From the IMG/VR virus record IMGVR_UViG_3300028327_000585: a DNA stretch of 64,000 nt. One strand, written 5' to 3'. Of the stretch, positions 1-39,618 are shown piece by piece. Source of the DNA: a virus. The notes under the pieces were generated by a model that was not told where the DNA came from, ran no database searches, and saw only the letters and a program-made list of their open reading frames with translations. Positions within the stretch are counted from its first letter, which is position 1, and every line of letters starts with the position of its first letter. The position numbers and the translations under genes were made by a program.

Positions 1-738
1 CACGCAATGCAAGGGCGCGATATTGTTTTTCACAACGCGGCTTTTGTCAGCATACGAAACAGCTTTTTTCAGCCCCGGCGCGAATCCGAAATTAACGTGA
101 CAGGGACGATCAATGTTCTTGACGCCATGATTGAGACCGAAGTCCCCAAAATCATTTTTGCGTCCTCAATGGCTGTTTACGGCATCCCCAGACATGACAG
201 CGTTCACGAGGGCGACATCGCGCAGCCTGTCTCTCCATATGGTTTAAGCAAACTGAAAGGCGAAATGCTGTGCAGAATTTACTCCGAGCGGTACGGCATT
301 TCATACAATGTCCTGAGATACTTTAATACTTTCGGCGAGGGGCAGCAGTATTCCGAATACGTCGGAGTCCTGACGGCCTTTATCAATTTAGCCGAAAGCG
401 GCAAGCCCATAACCGTATTCGGAGATGGATCACAGGAGAGGGACTTCATCTTCGTTGGCGATGTCGTTCAGGCAAATATCCTTTCCGCGAACAACTCAAA
501 AAACGCTATCTACAACATTGGAAGCGGAACAAAGACCTCCATTCTGTCTGTTGCGAAAGCCGTTCAGCATGAGTATAAAAACGCTGAAATCGCCTATGTG
601 CCAAACCCGCCTGGGGAAATTCAAACTATACGCGCAAATATAGAAGCCGCCGCAAATGACCTCGGCTTTACGCCGACGCGGGGAATTTTGGAATACACAC
701 CCGTACTTTGTGCGAACGCAAAAAGGAACAGAGTCTGA
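1..738 (+). CDS. NAD-dependent epimerase/dehydratase (extended SDR), 5' part outside window
   Basis: Frame open from base 1; FASSMAVYG, catalytic YGLSK (YxxxK), LRYFNTFG and RDFIFVGDV motifs; the N-terminal GxxGxxG motif is not in the window. Confidence 0.9.
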   Translation, partial: HAMQGRDIVFHNAAFVSIRNSFFQPRRESEINVTGTINVLDAMIETEVPKIIFASSMAVYGIPRHDSVHEGDIAQPVSPYGLSKLKGEMLCRIYSERYGISYNVLRYFNTFGEGQQYSEYVGVLTAFINLAESGKPITVFGDGSQERDFIFVGDVVQANILSANNSKNAIYNIGSGTKTSILSVAKAVQHEYKNAEIAYVPNPPGEIQTIRANIEAAANDLGFTPTRGILEYTPVLCANAKRNRV

Positions 739-1470
739 ATGAAATCCGTCATACTGTGCGCGGGTGAGGGAACCCGCGCCTCCGCCCATACAAACGGCGC
801 TAATAAATGCCTGACAGAAATCCAGAATCACGGAGTGTTAATAGACTATTCCCTGAAAACAGCTATTGAATTGACCGGCGTAGCCATTGTGCTTGTCGGC
901 CACAGAGCCGAGGCCGTGCGTGAATACATAGACGCTTTCGTCACAAAATATTACCCGCAAGCACAGTTGTATTACGCCGAGCAACGAGAGCGCAGAGGAA
1001 TTTGCGATGGTTTGTTGTGTATAGAGCCGTTGCTCAGCGGCGATGATTTTTTGATGTTTCTCGGCGATGAAATCATAACTCAACCCTCCCATAAAAAAAT
1101 GACAGAACTCTTTTCTCATTCAGGCGCATTGGCCGTGTGCGGTTATGTTCGCGCCAAAAACATTGGAGACGTGCGGAAAACATACTCATTGCAACTGACA
1201 GACGGCAAAGTGTCGGATATTACCGAAAAACCATCAAATCCAGTCAATAACCTGATGGGGACAGGAAATTGCGTTTTCAGAAACACTTTCCTTGACCACA
1301 TTCGCGGGTATTGCAAAAAAACATCGTCATACAAGCCCTACTTTTCATTTCCCGATGTGCTGAAATACGCTGTGGACAGCGGGGAAACAGTCCTTGCTTG
1401 CGAGATTGGCAAGGCTTATCTGAACTTTAATTACATGGACGACATCGCATCATTTTTACAAGGGGAATAA
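739..1470 (+). CDS. Sugar-phosphate nucleotidyltransferase (NTP_transferase family)
   Basis: N-terminal VILCAGEGTR...NKCL, FLGDEI, ITEKP motifs; abuts the upstream stop codon. Confidence 0.85.
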   Translation: MKSVILCAGEGTRASAHTNGANKCLTEIQNHGVLIDYSLKTAIELTGVAIVLVGHRAEAVREYIDAFVTKYYPQAQLYYAEQRERRGICDGLLCIEPLLSGDDFLMFLGDEIITQPSHKKMTELFSHSGALAVCGYVRAKNIGDVRKTYSLQLTDGKVSDITEKPSNPVNNLMGTGNCVFRNTFLDHIRGYCKKTSSYKPYFSFPDVLKYAVDSGETVLACEIGKAYLNFNYMDDIASFLQGE

Positions 1471-1472
1471 AA

Positions 1473-2798
1473 ATGGAACCCATTGTTGTGGTCTATTCAT
1501 TTAACGACGCCTACGCGGAGCTTGCCGCCGTATCTATGACATCGCTGTTGCACAACACAAAAAGGGATTGTCACATTCACATTTTTAAAAATTCAGTCAG
1601 CGACGATGTAATGACAAAAATTCTCAAGTTGGAGGAAATGTATCAAAACGCCAAAATAACGGTACACCATATACCTGACAAAGCATTTGTCGAAGTCGCT
1701 GATAAACATTACGGAAAAGAAACTTGGTATCCTCTGCTTACGCCTGAAATCCTCAGCGATCTTGACAAGGCGCTGATTCTTGAGCCTGATACTCTTGTAT
1801 GCCGCGATGTTTCGGAGCTATTTGATATTGATCTCGGCAGTCATCCTTTGGCAGCAAATTTCCGAACTTCCCCCCCCGGTTGGTCCTTGCCTACTTGGTT
1901 TTGTAATAAGTCCACGAATTTTAATGCAGGCGTTTTACTTTTAAATCTGAAATACATACGTGAGAACGATTCATTCGACATGAAGAATCTCGTTGGAATC
2001 GTAAAGCGTATACGCTCCTTGTATGGTATTGACATGTGGTTTGCTCAAGAGACATATCTGAATTATATTATTGACCATGTAAGCGTGAGCTATCTTGATA
2101 TAAAGTATAATTTTACTTTGTCTTCTCCAAACCTATGGCGTCTCGAAATGTATTTATTCAACATGGAAACACGTTTTATTGAGTTGCGTAATGCTTTTAC
2201 AAACCCAGTAATAAGACATTATGTTTGTGATAAACCAAATAGTAAGCTATGTAAACATTCGCTTGATTCGGTATTATCGTGGTGGAAATACCGCACGATT
2301 TCACCCTTTGCCAATCAAGAAAAGGACGCCGAGTGCCTGGAGGAAATTGTGGCGTACAGGCGATGTTCAAGAAATTCCCCAATTTCCTACTTTGATTATT
2401 GTTACCGCTATTTCTCCAGCGATATCCCGGAAGCTATCGAAAGACTCAAAGAATTAGTGGATGCGGGCAAAAAAATTGCAATCTGGGGGATAGGTCGTAT
2501 GGGTACAGTGTTTATACGCCTATCACGCATAATGAACCTGATGCCGGATGTAATTTGCGATATGTCAAAGTGCGGCACTAAACTTGATGGTATGGAAATA
2601 AACTCACCAGGAATCTTAAAGGACATGGCAACAGACAGCATTGTGGTAATAGCCATTGAGGATCCCGCTATTTGGTTAGACGTAAAGAAAAAGCTGCTGA
2701 ACATGGACTTCCCCGAAAAACATATTCTTACACTCTGCGAACCTTTGGCGCTCGGCGGCAGAAGATGGAATGAAGTACTGCAATCCGTGGCACTATAG
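1473..2798 (+). CDS. Glycosyltransferase family 8 with C-terminal Rossmann-like domain
   Basis: YAELAAVSMTSLL, LDKALILEPDTLV (variant DxD), FNAGVLLLNL, IRHYV..KP; C-terminal KIAIWGIGRMG. Confidence 0.8.
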   Translation: MEPIVVVYSFNDAYAELAAVSMTSLLHNTKRDCHIHIFKNSVSDDVMTKILKLEEMYQNAKITVHHIPDKAFVEVADKHYGKETWYPLLTPEILSDLDKALILEPDTLVCRDVSELFDIDLGSHPLAANFRTSPPGWSLPTWFCNKSTNFNAGVLLLNLKYIRENDSFDMKNLVGIVKRIRSLYGIDMWFAQETYLNYIIDHVSVSYLDIKYNFTLSSPNLWRLEMYLFNMETRFIELRNAFTNPVIRHYVCDKPNSKLCKHSLDSVLSWWKYRTISPFANQEKDAECLEEIVAYRRCSRNSPISYFDYCYRYFSSDIPEAIERLKELVDAGKKIAIWGIGRMGTVFIRLSRIMNLMPDVICDMSKCGTKLDGMEINSPGILKDMATDSIVVIAIEDPAIWLDVKKKLLNMDFPEKHILTLCEPLALGGRRWNEVLQSVAL

Positions 2799-2843
2799 AT
2801 GTGGCTGTCCTCCGCTAATCAGCATGACTTTCCACGTTTTTGA

Positions 2844-3113
2844 GTTTTTTGTAATAAGCGTGCTAACATTAACTCGAAACTTGATGAATATGAAAACAAT
2901 GGGTGTCTTCCGAGTACTCCTGGCTTAACCAAGAAATACGGTGGCATTGGAGAACTGCGTTTCTATTTTGCCCCTGGATACTGCGTATATTTCTGCAGCT
3001 ATGGTAAAATTTTAGTACTATTGCTCTGTGGCGGCGATAAAGATACACAACCAACTGACCTGGCTACAGCGAAGATCATCAAATCCCGTGAACTCAAAAA
3101 ACTCAAACCCTGA
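2844..3113 (+). pseudogene. Degenerate addiction-module killer toxin (HI1419-like, RelE/ParE superfamily); no start codon
   Basis: Not in ORF track. Frame 2844-3113 reads ...GIGELRFYFAPGYCVYFCSYGKILVLLLCGGDKDTQPTDLATAK..., matching the family pattern ELRIxxGPGYRVYF...LLxGGDKxTQ; in-frame TGA at 2841 and no ATG. Confidence 0.75.
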
Positions 3114-3127
3114 AACAAGAGGTAACA

Positions 3128-3373
3128 ATGGCGACCAGACTTTACGATTCTGTTGAATTTCTTGCTGACGAAGCTACAATATACGCTTACTTGCAAACGG
3201 CAGCCGAAACAAACGACAACGCATTCTACATCGGTTGTTTGGACAAGGCCATACGCGCCCGAGCAATCAATCAGCTTGCGGACGCAAACTCCAATCCGCT
3301 TGTTGTCACTAAAATTCAAGCCACTTTTGCTACCACGCCAACACCTACGAAAGAATTGACAAATGCACAATAA
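3128..3373 (+). CDS. Addiction-module antidote (HI1420-like), HTH apparently deleted
   Basis: YDSVEFLADEATIYAYLQTAAE...LDKAIRARAINQLA matches the family N-half; lies directly after the toxin remnant with SD GAGG; the usual TGLSRESLY helix is absent. Confidence 0.7.
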   Translation: MATRLYDSVEFLADEATIYAYLQTAAETNDNAFYIGCLDKAIRARAINQLADANSNPLVVTKIQATFATTPTPTKELTNAQ

Positions 3374-3493
3374 TCAATATTCAGGATGGTTTTTTTGACC
3401 GCCAAATTTTGCAGGATTCACGCACTATTTCGTTTTTTGCCAGTCAAGCGTGTAATTCCCTTAATTCTTTAACACTAACCACAAGAGGACAAA

Positions 3494-4276
3494 ATGAAAG
3501 TAGTTATTCTCGCGGGCGGGTTGGGTACACGGATAGCTGAGGAGTCCCACCTGCGTCCCAAGCCTATGATTGAAATCGGTGGTATGCCCATTCTGTGGCA
3601 TATTATGAAAATATATTCTTTTTTTGGTTTTAATGAATTTATAATATGTTGTGGATACAAAGGCTATGTGATCAAAGAGTACTTTGCCAATTACTACCTG
3701 CACCGCTCAAATGTGACCTTTGATTTTTCCGCCGAAAACAACATGACTATCCACAACAGCATTTCTGAGCCGTGGCGTGTCACCATTGTTGACACCGGCC
3801 TCAGTACACAGACAGGCGGACGCATAAAACGGGTTAAATCTTATATTGCCAACGAAACTTTCATGATGACATACGGCGATGGCCTCGCTGACATTGACAT
3901 CAAGGCATTGTTGAAACAGCACAGAGACTCAGGTATGACGGCCACGCTCACCGCCGTCCAGCCCTCGGGTCGCTATGGCGTACTTGATTTGGATGAAAAC
4001 AAAAACTGCGTGGTCGGTTTCCGCGAAAAGGCAAGGGAAGATTCCAACTGGATCAACGCCGGTTTTATGGTGCTGGAGCCTGAGATATTCAACTATCTTG
4101 ACGGAGACTCCTGCATCTTTGAGCGCAGACCAATGGAGATACTGAGCCTTGAGAAAAAACTGGGCGTCTATCGTCACCGCAATTACTGGCAGTGCATGGA
4201 CACACAGCGTGACAGGGATGCCCTTGAGTACCACTGGAGCAGTGGGAGCGCACCGTGGATGATGGATAAGATTTAA
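3494..4276 (+). CDS. rfbF: Glucose-1-phosphate cytidylyltransferase
   Basis: MKVVILAGGLGTRIAEESHLRPKPMIEIGGMPILWHIMK, TQTGGRIKR, MTYGDG, WINAGF, WQCMDT. Confidence 0.95.
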   Translation: MKVVILAGGLGTRIAEESHLRPKPMIEIGGMPILWHIMKIYSFFGFNEFIICCGYKGYVIKEYFANYYLHRSNVTFDFSAENNMTIHNSISEPWRVTIVDTGLSTQTGGRIKRVKSYIANETFMMTYGDGLADIDIKALLKQHRDSGMTATLTAVQPSGRYGVLDLDENKNCVVGFREKAREDSNWINAGFMVLEPEIFNYLDGDSCIFERRPMEILSLEKKLGVYRHRNYWQCMDTQRDRDALEYHWSSGSAPWMMDKI

Positions 4277-4289
4277 CATCAAAACCTAA

Positions 4290-4379
4290 GAGCATGGAGG
4301 CACAGAATATGACCGCATTGGCTTTTATCTCAGGCACTACACTTATGGTTATTGCGAAACGGTGCTCTACGCTGTATAA
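4290..4379 (+). pseudogene. 3' remnant of an FkbM-like methyltransferase gene
   Basis: 30 codons ending GFYLRHYTYGYCETVLYAV*, resembling the usual FkbM-family C-terminus (YLRHY...ETVLYA); in-frame stop at 4287, no start. Confidence 0.55.
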
Positions 4380-4382
4380 TGG

Positions 4383-5297
4383 GTGACACTAATAATGATC
4401 AGCGTACTTATGCTCACATACAACCGCCAGGCCCTCGTAGGACGGGCCATAGAGAGCGTTCTGAACCAGACGCTCAGGGATTTTGAGTTTATCATTGTTG
4501 ACAATGGCTCTACAGACGACAGCGGCGCGATAGTTGACAGTTACGCCGAGCGCGATAGACATATCCGCGTGATCCACCGCGAGCGCGGAAACATAGGCAG
4601 CGGACGCAACGCGGCTCTGGACGCCGCCAGGGGCGAATACATGGCCTTTATTGACGATGACGACTGGTGCGAGCCTGATTTTCTTGAATTTCTCTATAAT
4701 CTAGCTGTGGATAACGATGCGGAAGTGGCCATTTGCGGCGCTACTGATAAGGCATTCGACGAAGTAATGATTATGACCGCGGAAGAGGCGCTCATAGAAT
4801 TGATGTGGCGCAAGCGCTACAACATGGCTTTTCCAACCAAGCTGTTCAAGGCTGAGATAGCGGAAAAACTGCGTTTCCCAGAAGAAGGCTCGTACGATGA
4901 CATAGCCCTGATGTACCGCCTGCTGGCCCTGCCAAAGCGTGTGGCCTATCACGGACTGCCGAAGTACACCTTTTACAGGCACGATAGCAACAACTCCGCC
5001 TGGACTACAGACCACAGCCTCCTGACTCCCGAAACTCTGGACGAGTACTTACACGCTTACCGTGAGCGCACGGAGTGGCTAAGCGGTCTGTTTCCCAACA
5101 GCGCGGCGGCCTTCCGCTACTTTGAGTGGTCTTTCATGATTTCCATGGTGGAAAAAATAACCCGACTGAAATTACCGGGCTGCGATGGCCAACTGGCGGA
5201 CATGACGCGGGAATTGCGGGCGCATAGCGATGAGTTTATGAACGGCGGCTATATACTGGATTTTGAGAAAGAGTGGATGAGACAGCATGTATTATAG
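4383..5297 (+). CDS. Glycosyltransferase family 2 (start possibly ATG 4395)
   Basis: ISVLMLTYNR, IIVDNGSTD, RNAALDAARGEYMAFIDDDD. Confidence 0.93.
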   Translation: MTLIMISVLMLTYNRQALVGRAIESVLNQTLRDFEFIIVDNGSTDDSGAIVDSYAERDRHIRVIHRERGNIGSGRNAALDAARGEYMAFIDDDDWCEPDFLEFLYNLAVDNDAEVAICGATDKAFDEVMIMTAEEALIELMWRKRYNMAFPTKLFKAEIAEKLRFPEEGSYDDIALMYRLLALPKRVAYHGLPKYTFYRHDSNNSAWTTDHSLLTPETLDEYLHAYRERTEWLSGLFPNSAAAFRYFEWSFMISMVEKITRLKLPGCDGQLADMTRELRAHSDEFMNGGYILDFEKEWMRQHVL

Positions 5298-5298
5298 C

Positions 5299-5713
5299 AG
5301 TTCAACTTTTTTAGGTTGAACTTAATACTATACAGAGGTAATTGCAAAACCCCGCTGCACGTCTGCTCCCGACCTTCCGCCGTCTCTGGCTGTATTTCAC
5401 AACTTGTTTATTGACAATATTTTACGCCAGAGCCTGCTCCGGTCGGGCGCAACCTACCAACTCCGTTGGACTTGCAAAACTAACGTTTTGCAAGTGGCTC
5501 TACAGACAAAAACTGTTCAACTGATATGTCTGCCTGCCTGAGAATGGCTCGAAGCGTCCCTTCGGGCAAATCGCCTGGGTGATTCGGAATGGTCGTGAAG
5601 CGTTGTGACGCTGTAGAATACCATATAGCAATTTTCGCTTTTATTGCTTGCTTACGGCGGGCAAAGCTCGCCTACAAGCAATAAGCGGCAAGGATTTACA
5701 AGTAAATCCTTGC
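5299..5713. repeat. Cluster of REP-like palindromes in host intergenic DNA
   Basis: Perfect inverted repeats: AGTTCAAC 5299-5306/5315-5322; ACTTGCAAAAC 5470-5480/5485-5495; TTATTGCTTG 5641-5650/5675-5684; GCAAGGATTTAC 5688-5699/5702-5713. Confidence 0.65.
5334..5501. mobile_element. Candidate MITE (168 bp)
   Basis: Imperfect terminal inverted repeats AGAG-N4-TTGCAAAAC (5334-5350) and GTTTTGCAA-N4-CTCT (5485-5501); no convincing coding content; no clear target duplication. Confidence 0.35.
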
Positions 5714-5935
5714 ATAGCAGTTCAGCTATAAATGGTAGATCGAACCAAAAATCATATTAACAGCATATAGCAAATAAGTATTTCCTAAAAATGTAAATAC
5801 TGAAATATATACATTTATTTTTTATTTGAATTCTTTGTGTATTGTAGTTTAATATCGTTTTTCTCAGACATCCTCTTTTGCCGAAAACGAAGATTGTTCT
5901 TAGCAGCCACTCTTCGAGCGATTTTTGGATGTTTG

Positions 5936-5952
5936 GGACACGGATCGGACAC
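5936..5952 (+). repeat. GGACAC direct repeat pair, candidate integrase arm-type site near the att junction
   Basis: GGACAC at 5936-5941 and 5947-5952, immediately before the integrase ATG (5957). Confidence 0.4.
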
Positions 5953-5956
5953 CAAT

Positions 5957-7213
5957 ATGCAAAAACTTCACTCACGCACTTCCAGAAAAAAACTCGCGGC
6001 AGGACAGCGGTTCCATGAACACGTGGCAAACGGTCAGTATCTGTGCTACAGGCGCCCCCAAAATGGGAGTGCCGGAACATGGTCCGCCAGGTTTTTGGAT
6101 GAATTTGGCAGTGAACATCTAAAAAAAATGGCTCTTGCGGATGATGACCTGCCAGCAAACGGCAAGACGGTCATGAGCTATGCTCAGGCCATACTAAAAG
6201 TAAGGGATGTTCTCGAAATTCTGCGCCTGCAATCCAGGGCAAAAGCGGCGGGTGAATACGTCATAGACGTTGATAAATACACGGTTGCTCAAGCAATGAA
6301 CGATTACTTTGAAAACAAGGAGCGAACCGGAAAGAGAAACAAAGGATTGAAATACTACAAGCAAAACTCTGATGCCTATGTAATACCAGAGCTGGGGCGT
6401 ATCCCTATGGTTCTTCTGACAAAAACCCGGATTGAGAAATGGCTGAGTTGGATTTCCATGTCGCCGCGCAGAACAAAGAAGTTTGCACAACCACCAAAAA
6501 GCGACGAAGAAAAACGGGCGCGGAAAGAAACGGCCAATCGCAACCTGGGTATCCTTTGCGCTGCCTTGAATTACGCGGTTAAAAACAACATCGAACTGGC
6601 GCGTGAGTGCATTCCCTATCAATGGCGATTGGCGGAGCGCTTCGAGGGGACTGGCAAATCAAGGGACGGCAAACTTTCAAAAGAAGACAGGAGTAAACTC
6701 CTTCAGGCTTGCAATCCTGATTTCAGAGATCTGGTTCTTGGAGCTTTGCTCACAGGCGCGAGATATGGAGAAATCATCCGTTTCAAATGCAGGGACTATC
6801 AGCACGGCAGCATATACGTTCCTGATTCCAAGAGCGGCAAACCAAGAACAATTCAACTGACGCAAGCGGGGGTCGCCTTTTTCGACAAATTGATACAGCA
6901 CAGGCGGGCGGACGAGCTGATTTTTACACGCGCAAACGGCAATCCCTGGATTAGAGGCGCACAAACACCGCTGATGACAAAAAGCTGTAAAGACGCCGGT
7001 ATAGCGCCCATTGTTTTCCACGAGCTAAGACACGAGCGCATGAGCAAGCTGGCAAACGCGGGGCTGGAGCCTGAATTGAACGCTCTTTTGGCCGGACACT
7101 CAGACACAAAAATGGGTGAGCGCTATTATATTCATCGCGAAAACAGACACCTGATTGCAAGGATTGAAGAAACAGGCGGACAGGATGATTGGGAACTATT
7201 GAAGATTTGTTGA
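5957..7213 (+). CDS. int: Tyrosine recombinase / phage integrase
   Basis: Catalytic set R (TGARYGEI), K (SKSGK), HxxR (FHELRH), H (LAGHSD), Y (ERYYIH); N-terminal arm-binding-like region; ATG 5957 preferred over the track's 5837 start. Confidence 0.93.
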   Translation: MQKLHSRTSRKKLAAGQRFHEHVANGQYLCYRRPQNGSAGTWSARFLDEFGSEHLKKMALADDDLPANGKTVMSYAQAILKVRDVLEILRLQSRAKAAGEYVIDVDKYTVAQAMNDYFENKERTGKRNKGLKYYKQNSDAYVIPELGRIPMVLLTKTRIEKWLSWISMSPRRTKKFAQPPKSDEEKRARKETANRNLGILCAALNYAVKNNIELARECIPYQWRLAERFEGTGKSRDGKLSKEDRSKLLQACNPDFRDLVLGALLTGARYGEIIRFKCRDYQHGSIYVPDSKSGKPRTIQLTQAGVAFFDKLIQHRRADELIFTRANGNPWIRGAQTPLMTKSCKDAGIAPIVFHELRHERMSKLANAGLEPELNALLAGHSDTKMGERYYIHRENRHLIARIEETGGQDDWELLKIC

Positions 7214-38207: not shown

Positions 38208-38396
38208 TCAATCTGCAGGCTTGGCTTTCGGCTTTAAAAACATTATAAGCCTGTTGTCGTAGATTGCTACAGACACTGGATCTCCGTCATAAGAAGTGAT
38301 TGGAGACCTTACAATATTTTCCAATATTTTGCTATTACCAAACTCGTCGCGCTCGTCAAAGAACTGAATCGGATTTAATTCGTCTTCGTTAATCAT
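38208..38396 (-). CDS. Hypothetical protein
   Basis: SD AAGGAG; overlaps the upstream stop. Confidence 0.55.
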   Translation of the reverse strand: MINEDELNPIQFFDERDEFGNSKILENIVRSPITSYDGDPVSVAIYDNRLIMFLKPKAKPAD

Positions 38397-38775
38397 TGCG
38401 GCAATTCTCCTTCAAAGTTGTGATTTGGGCGTTTTTAAGTTTCTCCAAAAACTTCCGGCCACAAGTCACTACACCGCCGAATATTTTCCCATTTCGATAA
38501 TGGTTGTAGACGCACCAGCCGTTGCCGTCGTCTTCAAAGTTTTTGCATTGTCGTTGCTCTTCCTGGATGATTGAGTGGCATCTTGTCGCGAACCCCAGCC
38601 ATGAGCCGTCAAGAAAAGTCTGCTCAAGCGCAATCAGAACATCGTCGCAAATCAGGCCGTAAACCTGCATGACTGTTCTGAGATGGTTTATCTGTTCTTC
38701 GCGGGTATCCAGCCCCATCGCTACATAATATGCGGGAAATTGCTCGAATGTAGTTATGTTTGTGAGTTGTTCCAT
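38389..38775 (-). CDS. Hypothetical protein
   Basis: 3' part of track ORF 38389-38850; ATG 38775 chosen. Confidence 0.55.
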   Translation of the reverse strand: MEQLTNITTFEQFPAYYVAMGLDTREEQINHLRTVMQVYGLICDDVLIALEQTFLDGSWLGFATRCHSIIQEEQRQCKNFEDDGNGWCVYNHYRNGKIFGGVVTCGRKFLEKLKNAQITTLKENCRND

Positions 38776-38934
38776 GCTCCGGCTATTTTTCAACCCTGAC
38801 CTCCCGAAGAACTTCCGAATGACAGCCGGGGTTTCCGTCTTGATCCGCAAAAACAGTAACCTTCGTTACAAACGGAGCTTTCGCGGCTTTTTTGGCAAAG
38901 GCTTCCGCTTTCTCTCGGCTGGCAAACATCGCGT

Positions 38935-39102
38935 TCCAAAACTTGTTGTCGGCATTGAATCCTCCCCTCCCTAAAGGGCGGGGATTCCTGTTTCATCAAC
39001 CACTGCCTTGCTCCGAGAGGAACTTGGTCTTACATAGTCTCCACAGGCTGACGCCGCCATTCCGACGGCCAAAATGTTACGGGAAGCGTTGATGTCACGA
39101 TT
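38935..39102 (-). ncRNA. Predicted TnpB omega-RNA (reRNA): ~148-nt scaffold plus flank-derived guide UGCCGACAACAAGUUUUGGA
   Basis: Retained segment corresponds to the tnpB 3' end and right end, which encode omega-RNA in IS200/IS605 elements; co-oriented with the surrounding operon. Exact ends are inferred. Confidence 0.6.
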
Positions 39103-39163
39103 GCAAGGAGAAAATCGCGCCTTATATCCCCGCCCTGAAGAGCGGAGTTTTACGGCGCACTGG
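38955..39163 (-). mobile_element. 209-bp non-autonomous IS200/IS605-family element (PATE) with both ends and a tnpB 3' remnant
   Basis: Minus strand: target TTAT (39164-39167), left end with AAAA guide plus hairpin CTCCGCTC-TTCA-GGGCGGGG; NRDINASRNILAVG..ACG TnpB tail; right end GAAT plus hairpin CCCCGCCC-TTTA-GGGAGGGG ending TTCAA. Confidence 0.9.
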
Positions 39164-39180
39164 ATAACAAAATGTATGTA

Positions 39181-39618
39181 TCAAAGTTTGTATAACTCCA
39201 CCTTTCTCTCGGACAAAACTGAATCAATAAGACTGTAAACAACAGTCCAATCGCCGCCGCCCAATCCGCAGCCAATCAGATACGGCATGGCGATGGTGTC
39301 TTCCGGCTCAGTTAAATCCAGTATTTTACGCAGACAGCTCTTCATCGCGTCGTAATTCGTATTACGCATACCAAAGCCGCAGCCGTATTGGGAAAACAGA
39401 TTTAATATAATCTGGCCAGAATCAATTTGAACCGGTAGCACAGTCCCCAGCAAATCTTTATGGTTTTTGATATATTTAAGATACGAGCTAAAGACCTCCG
39501 GGTACAGATTTTTAATTTGAAGCGCCACACCGCCACCCATCACACCCTGGCAGTTGACCTGGTGGCAGATGTATTTTGCGCTTGTGTTGAGTAAGTCGCC
39601 GCTGATAATCGTAATCAT
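39181..39618 (-). CDS. Macro domain (Appr-1-p processing / ADP-ribose-binding) protein
   Basis: GDLL...ICHQVNCQGVMGGGVALQIK, IAMPYLIGCGLGGGDW. Confidence 0.92.
   Translation of the reverse strand: MITIISGDLLNTSAKYICHQVNCQGVMGGGVALQIKNLYPEVFSSYLKYIKNHKDLLGTVLPVQIDSGQIILNLFSQYGCGFGMRNTNYDAMKSCLRKILDLTEPEDTIAMPYLIGCGLGGGDWTVVYSLIDSVLSERKVELYKL

Follow-up and report, generated by a model that had tools for sequence, protein, structure and literature searches.

The stretch of DNA analysed here (the window) comprises 64,000 nt of the IMG/VR virus record IMGVR_UViG_3300028327_000585. Within positions 1-7213, the first 5.3 kb correspond to a gene cluster of the polysaccharide or O-antigen type, with an epimerase fragment, two nucleotidyltransferases and glycosyltransferases of the GT8 and GT2 families; one of the two nucleotidyltransferases is a glucose-1-phosphate cytidylyltransferase (E 1e-117). 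These sugar-nucleotide and glycosyltransferase genes are followed by a tyrosine integrase gene (5837-7213), and this region likely marks the boundary between host and prophage. The remainder of the window is phage-like and encodes a DnaE-type polymerase and tail-fibre-like proteins. Sugar genes, integrase and phage-like remainder taken together fit an integrated prophage, whose host would be an uncultured termite-gut bacterium. The flanking RfbF gene has few named matches and these are scattered over phyla, so that it is uninformative on host taxonomy.

The feature under study is a 209-bp element that occupies part of the 387 bp separating a Macro-domain gene from the next called gene (Table 1). 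Its coordinates are given for the minus strand. The insertion is intergenic, the element lying 17 nt past the stop codon of the Macro gene. Neither the window nor the collections searched contain a second copy of the element. It is co-oriented with DnaE, Macro and the downstream genes, and the co-orientation stated in the sequence-only reading was confirmed for the flanking genes.

A Macro-domain protein of exactly the same sequence is found on three contigs, namely one of 87 kb from ENA that includes the window, one from JGI and a second from ENA, and the public runs in which the locus occurs are labelled as termite gut metagenome. The metagenome samples that contain the phage are those of ERZ27257309, ERZ27257311 and JGI 3300002119. 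In the three termite-gut assemblies (3/3), the element is found at the same site with an identical sequence. Two of these assemblies break inside the element, one in the right hairpin (L046) and the other in the tnpB remnant (L047), as expected where a repeat confuses the assembler. No empty site was detected in the three assemblies, nor in the contigs of four termite-gut runs, whose coverage is patchy and in which rare variants are missed; none of the contigs of runs X3 and X4 align at the locus and no piece in the four runs spans the whole stretch. The element-free allele postulated in the sequence-only reading, which was looked for in assemblies and contigs, was thus not encountered, and the insertion looks fixed in the visible data. 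In INPHARED, a DNA search with the locus matched only 57 bp of the left end and a protein search with DnaE returned nothing above 35% identity, while relatives of the Macro gene in IMG/VR are at most 53% identical, so that no empty-site comparison can be drawn from them.

Table 1. Features at the locus, with their coordinates in the window.
Feature	Coordinates	Strand	Basis or composition
Macro-domain gene, upstream neighbour	39181..39618	-	Pfam Macro 9.5e-10; phrog_335 3e-39
TTAT target / transposon-adjacent motif (TAM), outside the element	39164..39167	-	Read from sequence; position kept in relatives
Left end, 62 nt	39102..39163	-	12 nt + AAAA + hairpin + 26 nt to the deletion junction
tnpB 3'-end remnant, 42 codons from RDINA (RuvC-III motif) to stop	38971..39101	-	tblastn
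omega-RNA scaffold-coding segment	38955..39099	-	Covariance model R1, pair counts, sub-threshold RAGATH-18
Right-end core	38955..38987	-	GAAT + hairpin + AGGAT + TCAA, read from sequence
Phage flank, putative 16-20 nt guide of a read-through omega-RNA (TGCCGACAACAAGTTTTGGA)	38935..38954	-	Position by the ISDra2 rule (PMC8612924)
Possible 48-aa ORF between the element and the downstream gene	38783-38929		ORF list
Downstream called gene, 134 aa, no known family	38389..38793	-	Gene calls on L045

Ends of the element

On the minus strand, the TTAT (39167-39164) is followed by the element itself (39163-38955; length checked) and then by the flank TGCCGACAAC. The element opens with CCAGTGCGCCGT-AAAA, in which AAAA (39151-39148) represents a DNA guide located directly 5' of the left hairpin, CTCCGCTC-TTCA-GGGCGGGG (39147-39128), made of 8 pairs of which 2 are G-T. 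At the right end, a second DNA guide, GAAT (38987-38984), is found directly 5' of the hairpin CCCCGCCC-TTTA-GGGAGGGG (38983-38964), which has 8 pairs and 1 mismatch. This hairpin is followed on its 3' side by AGGAT and by the cleavage motif TCAA (38958-38955) that closes the element, beyond which the phage flank begins at 38954 (TGCCGACAACAAG...). No target duplication is seen in the sequence of the flanks. The TTAT, the 209-bp length, the AAAA and GAAT that precede the two hairpins and the terminal TCAA had all been noted in the sequence-only reading and were found again as claimed.

In IS608, the cleavage tetranucleotides are distant from the subterminal hairpins and are read by 4-nt guides located 5' of the hairpin feet, TTAC being paired with AAAG on the left and TCAA being the motif on the right (PMC3201880). 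By the same rule, AAAA pairs here with TTAT and GAAT with TCAA. Across relatives of the element, GAAT pairs with TCAA in about 20 elements and GAAG with TCAC in 4 elements, the latter possibly forming one clade. The element resembles IS608 of Helicobacter pylori in having imperfect subterminal hairpins, 4-nt guides, the TCAA/GAAT combination and an insertion 3' of a tetranucleotide without duplication. It differs from IS608 by its target and guide (TTAT/AAAA instead of TTAC/AAAG), by the spacing between cleavage site and hairpin foot (left, 16 nt versus 19 nt in IS608; right, 9 nt versus 10 nt) and by the lack of both tnpA and tnpB.

The description of the locus as a protein-free IS200/IS605 mini-element with IS608-type ends thus agrees with the data, the left 60 nt being 93% identical to known left ends. 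Chance similarity was excluded by the covariance-model E value of 3e-22 obtained for the right 145 nt (see below). By its sequence, the element is a non-autonomous derivative of the IS200/IS605 family. No TnpA-like sequence was detected in the window (best tblastn E 0.33) and precomputed Pfam lists contain neither TnpA nor TnpB at positions 48.7-81.8 kb of the 87-kb contig; the lack of a TnpA nearby is what is expected of a non-autonomous element. The remnant in the element aside, no TnpB is encoded in the window, in agreement between tblastn and the sequence-only reading.

The right end also provides a GGAGG (38965-38961) located 5 nt before an ATG that is formed by the last A of the element and the TG of the flank (window 38953-38967, minus strand). 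This ATG at the right boundary opens a basic ORF of 29 codons running into the flank, probably a chance by-product of the insertion.

The tnpB remnant, the deletion junction and sister copies

With both IS ends present in so short an element, the sole coding trace is a tnpB remnant of 42 codons. Its product, RDINASRNILAVGMAASACGDYVRPSSSRSKAVVDETGIPAL followed by the stop (39099 to the stop codon at 38973-38971), matches the C-terminus of a sister TnpB at 79% identity (E 3e-17 by tblastn); it runs from RDINASRNILAVGMAASACGD to a terminal IPAL, and the stop codon falls inside the loop of the right-end hairpin. From the left end, 62 nt have been retained, and a further 147 nt cover the 3' end of tnpB together with the right end. 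The deletion joined position 62 of the left end to the codon that precedes the RuvC-III RDINA motif, with the junction at 39102/39101. In the termite-gut runs X1 and X2, contigs match 39026-39101 and then extend into tnpB (CATGCAATACGCCACACTCAGG..., plus strand), which places the junction at this point. The left end of a sister copy, L132, runs on as TTGCATAATAAG... where the window changes to tnpB. The retention of a tnpB 3'/right-end segment, previously put at about 148 nt, is therefore upheld with a corrected length of 147 nt.

The sequence-only reading had further supposed that the deletion removed tnpA. This is probably wrong: in L132, tnpB is found directly after the left end, about 96 nt past the left boundary, and no tnpA is present, which indicates a family of the IS1341 type in which tnpA probably never occurred. 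The parent was probably a tnpB-only (IS1341-type) element.

When JGI metagenome contigs were searched for exact matches to the final 24 nt of the right end, four loci were obtained; the right-end 33-mer is absent from IMG/VR. One of the sister copies, L048 (11647-12202), is identical to the right part of the window element at 145 of 147 nt, has a different flank (ATTGCATTG...) and displays 144 further tnpB codons upstream. It adjoins ApbC, prepilin-peptidase-like and TamB-like genes and hence lies on a bacterial chromosome. The other, L132 (340-1190), came from a protein search seeded with L048 and has the structure TTTTAT, left end, tnpB (243 aa), right end, TGATATCG, the element starting after TTTTAT and ending before the last sequence. 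Similarity of the window to L048 and L132 ends exactly after TCAA and the flanks differ from copy to copy; a shared right end next to differing flanks fixes the right boundary and indicates that the family is mobile.

Neither sister copy has an intact tnpB. When compared to a 377-aa relative, L132 lacks residues 69-216 while L048 joins approximately residue 66 to residue 248. By sequence comparison, the window element, L048 and L132 therefore read as a deletion series with three different junctions and no intact TnpB. An intact cognate TnpB was not found in any of the other collections either: the best match in a scan of reference genomes has 67% identity, those of a search of 1.84 billion representative proteins have at most 66% among the matches whose sequences were inspected, and searches of 5.8 billion clusters returned one deleted copy of 243 aa at 85%, the best full-length protein being at ca. 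70%. No second copy with the 39102/39101 junction was detected in the collections searched, and movement of the mini-element itself was thus not seen.

These copies bear on the reading in which the element is an inert relic, that is, a longer tnpB element that inserted in the prophage, lost its interior in place and persists as a decaying, unmobilised remnant yielding no functional RNA. We regard such a fate as improbable. It would account for the single copy with its 39102/39101 junction, and a family in decay is suggested by the three subfamily members, each of which is a deletion derivative with a junction of its own. However, both ends and both guide tetranucleotides are intact in the window, and the right part differs from that of L048 at only 2 of 147 positions, which leaves little time for decay. 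A comparison of the L048 and L132 tnpB sequences also speaks against it: dN/dS is 0.105, and dS, which is 1.41 over the 100 codons upstream, drops to 0.26 over the 44 codons shared with the RNA, indicating past selection on the protein and on the RNA alike. With tnpB of the subfamily under strong purifying selection and synonymous change suppressed over the RNA, functional copies would have existed recently, and we infer that the shortened RNA described below and its TnpB may have been under selection until recently.

The retained omega-RNA segment, its putative guide and its predicted transcription

In ISDra2, the guide RNA is ca. 150 nt long and is composed of the tnpB 3' end, the right end and ca. 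16 nt of the flank (PMC8612924). Besides the right-end hairpin, the corresponding segment of the window element contains helix A (GCCGUC/GGCGGC), helix B (CCUGU/ACAGG) and helix C (GACUAU/GUGGUU). This segment was aligned for the window, L048, L132 and 20 full-length relatives taken from reference genomes, and the helices common to the alignment are A (GCCGYC/GRCGGC), B (CCUGU/ACAGG) and C (around GUAAGACC). For the 17 pairs of helices A to C, 95.7% of the cells are paired, versus at most 62% when the partners are slid by 1 to 3 columns. The covariation score is 0.428 against a shuffled mean of 0.177 and was reached in none of 500 shuffles, for sequences that are related to one another and in a region that is also coding. 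Compensatory changes on both sides occur in 39 cells, and 7 pairs changed on both sides. The window copy forms all of the 17 pairs, several of them by compensatory change, as with a C-G pair where relatives have G-C or U-A.

A covariance model, R1, was built from the 20 full-length relatives alone, leaving out the subfamily of the window. Its sole match in the window is at 38955-39099 (91.9 bits, E 3e-22), a score that partly reflects coding-sequence conservation since the region is also coding. R1 also matches the tnpB 3' ends of elements from E. coli, Klebsiella and a Morganella phage, and gave no match in 41 loci of related phages or in the rest of the contig. The 147 nt kept in the window, which start at the RuvC-III codons and finish with TCAA, align with the 20-element model from end to end. 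Both this full-length alignment with relatives and the unique match of the covariance-model scan for omega-RNA are in line with the earlier proposal that the omega-RNA-encoding region had been kept. Two results weigh on the other side: Rfam at gathering thresholds gave no match in the window, RAGATH-18 being detected below threshold at 38985-39047 (24.1 bits for a threshold of 44.9), and the minimum-free-energy fold of the single sequence is no better than that of shuffled sequences (z 0.33). RNAalifold run on a MAFFT alignment did not recover the two 3' hairpins, whose columns were misaligned.

One part of the scaffold is missing. A penultimate hairpin of 23 nt (model positions 121-143) is present in 20 of the 20 relatives and absent from the window, L048 and L132. 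In the relatives it stands after CAGGAA and ahead of the right-end hairpin, a place that corresponds to 38984-38990 in the window and to columns 147-198 of alignment A2. The hairpin was apparently lost by a deletion between GGAA repeats. Its loss might be counted in favour of an inert relic, but it is shared by all three members and is thus a trait of the subfamily rather than damage to the window copy. The scaffold of the subfamily could represent a naturally minimised omega-RNA, and the suppression of dS over the RNA argues that the shortened RNA was functional.

The guide of this putative RNA would be provided by the phage flank. The guide sequence occurs once in the window, even when 3 mismatches are allowed. 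TnpA is known to excise the top strand and to rejoin the flanks, the donor joint being composed of the TAM and the right flank and hence matching the guide RNA of the element itself (PMC8612924; PMC10055086). The predicted empty site would here consist of ...CATTTTGTTAT joined directly to TGCCGACAAC..., and the predicted target of the omega-RNA on this site would be TTAT-TGCCGACAACAAGTTTTG. The statement of the sequence-only reading that the guide is the phage flank and that precise excision would recreate TTAT and the target thus holds by the established mechanism (PMC8612924, PMC10055086). Such a match between guide and empty site is, however, built into every IS605 insertion and provides no evidence for a function in the phage.

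As for expression, a promoter and terminator scan revealed no promoter-like site inside the element and nothing beyond shuffle expectation, so that transcription would need read-through from the operon. The lack of an internal promoter-like site is also what an inert relic would display. From the Macro stop codon to the element, the scan gave no terminator-like site; both of those that it listed on the minus strand fall within the Macro coding region.

These data are relevant to the proposal of the sequence-only reading that the element is an RNA-only parasite or weapon, the omega-RNA of which would act with a host TnpB to cut sibling or superinfecting phages that lack the insert, in a form of homing or exclusion. 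Several observations are compatible with it. The cis logic holds, with the phage flank as guide and TTAT as TAM (mechanism as in PMC8612924 and PMC10055086), alignment and covariance model alike point to a complete scaffold region, the element is co-oriented with its flanking genes with no terminator-like site between it and the Macro stop codon, the metagenomes that contain the phage also contain related tnpB sequence and the occupied site is the sole allele in the three assemblies. On the other hand, none of the collections searched yielded an intact cognate TnpB and tnpB is internally deleted in both sisters; no empty allele was seen that could serve as its target; the geometry of guide and empty site, common to all IS605 insertions, is uninformative on phage function; the insertion is intergenic and single-copy; and other phages or prophages carry ordinary full copies of this IS family (see below). 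The proposal would require a compatible host TnpB, transcription, a working shortened scaffold and element-free competitors. We give it a very low probability, and the homing or superinfection-weapon reading is unlikely. Its most elaborate form, in which a borrowed host TnpB would cut element-free phage at TTAT-TGCCGACAAC... during co-infection or superinfection and the element would represent an RNA-guided gene drive or exclusion device, is likewise held to be very improbable; if true, this device would cost the phage only 209 bp. A CRISPR or TldR-like domesticated guide was also considered and rejected, there being no protein partner and the IS ends being ordinary.

With high confidence, we favour an internally deleted, tnpB-only (IS1341-type) derivative of the IS200/IS605 family, similar to PATEs and MITEs, that is carried as a passenger in a termite-gut prophage. 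Under this explanation, a longer tnpB-only element would have lost nearly all of its tnpB and kept every cis signal, namely both hairpins, AAAA, GAAT, TCAA and the 147-nt segment. The prophage would have picked up the element from IS copies in the host community. To move, the mini-element would need a Y1 TnpA matching its end-type to be supplied in trans, and its RNA would be active only with a compatible TnpB in trans and read-through from the phage operon. The omega-RNA would then direct cutting of the empty site, TTAT-TGCCGACAAC..., and thereby help to keep the element in place, which is common to all IS605 elements. The data show directly what the element is, where it ends, its homologies, the conserved helices and the existence of sister copies elsewhere, while its mobilisation in trans, its transcription and any activity as a guide RNA are inferred. 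Most likely, the element is a selfish or neutral passenger and not a phage adaptation.

Relatives in bacteria, plasmids and phages and comparison with known systems

Of 5426 complete E. coli genomes, 4923 contain a sequence 93% identical to the left 60 nt, as do 1375 plasmids, and the left end is 89.5% identical over 57 nt to one in Morganella phage IME1369_01. In E. coli (NZ_CM135133), the element that has this left end carries divergent tnpA and tnpB genes, is preceded by TTAT on the left and ends in ...GGAGGATGTCAA. On a Klebsiella IncF plasmid, tnpB follows the left end directly. Left ends of this type are preceded by TTAT at the same spacing in the window, in E. coli, on the Klebsiella plasmid, in L132 and in viral contigs of IMG/VR. 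A scan of the latter collection detected 17 viral contigs (L138-L154) with this left-end type, the TTAT being at a constant distance in all 17 of them. In 6 of the 17, a right end is located 1.28-1.33 kb downstream, which corresponds to full-size tnpB-only elements. The other 11 contigs have no right end detectable in the stretch examined and may carry truncated elements, elements with a tnpA or solo left ends.

In Morganella phage IME1369_01 (KY653118, L042:4061-5209), a 382-aa protein described as a "putative virulence protein" is a TnpB, with Pfam matches to OrfB_IS605 (3.7e-34) and to a TNB domain (4.6e-24). Its gene lies inside a complete tnpB-only IS, the left end of which is at 3501-3557 and the right end of which is matched by model R1, up to 5252; the label "putative virulence protein" is therefore misleading for this TnpB. 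With full elements in at least 6 IMG/VR viral contigs and in the Morganella phage, insertions of this IS family in phages or prophages are ordinary. In run X2, a left-end variant has a depth of 29 versus ca. 3 for the phage, as word depth in Logan contigs, which is not a true copy number; related IS copies appear to outnumber the phage in this sample.

The enterobacterial elements (NZ_CM135133, Klebsiella IncF, KY653118) thus resemble the window element by their left end (89-93% over ca. 60 nt), their TTAT TAM, a right end that finishes in ...GGAGGATGTCAA and the match of their tnpB 3' ends to R1. They differ in that their tnpB/omega-RNA part is distant, with no blastn match to the window, and that they have a full TnpB and the extra hairpin before the right-end hairpin. 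Likeness to ISDra2 resides in an RNA derived from the tnpB 3' end and the right end, the flank as guide and a TAM that is the TnpA target (PMC8612924). RAGATH-18-derived RNAs are guide RNAs of IS607 TnpBs (PMC11061315), and the RAGATH-18 core of these IS607 reRNAs, CCUGUGGAG...GAUGAAACAGGAA, aligns to 38985-39047 at a score below the gathering threshold. Unlike the ISDra2 and IS607 systems, the window element encodes no protein partner and its RNA is putative.

The closest known counterparts are the palindrome-associated transposable elements (PATEs), a term that originates from a study of Haloquadratum (PMC3119063). That PATEs may encode omega-RNAs acted on in trans by TnpB has already been noted by Meers et al. 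2023 (PMC10055086, discussion). The window element shares with PATEs a short length, both IS ends, the lack of a protein gene, an omega-RNA-coding 3' segment and a reliance on TnpA and TnpB that would be supplied in trans. Whereas PATEs and MITEs usually occur in several copies per genome, only one copy of the window element is known; it further differs from PATEs by its location in a prophage of an uncultured termite-gut bacterium and by an RNA that lacks the penultimate hairpin of related elements. No earlier published description of the 209-bp element was found. This kind of element is already described, and what is new is this member, in a prophage of an uncultured termite-gut bacterium.

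Another mini-element of ca. 200 bp, protein-free and unrelated to that of the window, was observed in L049 (2604-2810, minus strand; Ga0335397_10068389). It is preceded by TTAC, contains AAAG followed by a hairpin and has the right end GGAATCCCCTCCCTTTAGGGAGGGGAGGATTCAA, the TTAC/AAAG pairing being of the IS608 type. A full element in L050 has, at its tnpB 3' end and right end, the same sequence as the last ca. 100 nt of this mini-element. Mini-elements that keep the omega-RNA end thus recur in metagenomes.

A larger importance would attach to the element only if a trans-acting TnpB used the RNA of the window against element-free phages. Independently of this, the locus provides a clean and well-bounded case of tnpB elements decaying to protein-free mini-elements in which the ends and the guide-RNA module are kept, and it indicates that such mini-elements reach the prophages of uncultured gut bacteria. 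For annotation, it illustrates that short conserved "intergenic" blocks of phages can be remnants of IS605 elements. Finally, the subfamily is of interest for the minimal omega-RNA scaffold, being one hairpin short and yet displaying constraint at the RNA level.
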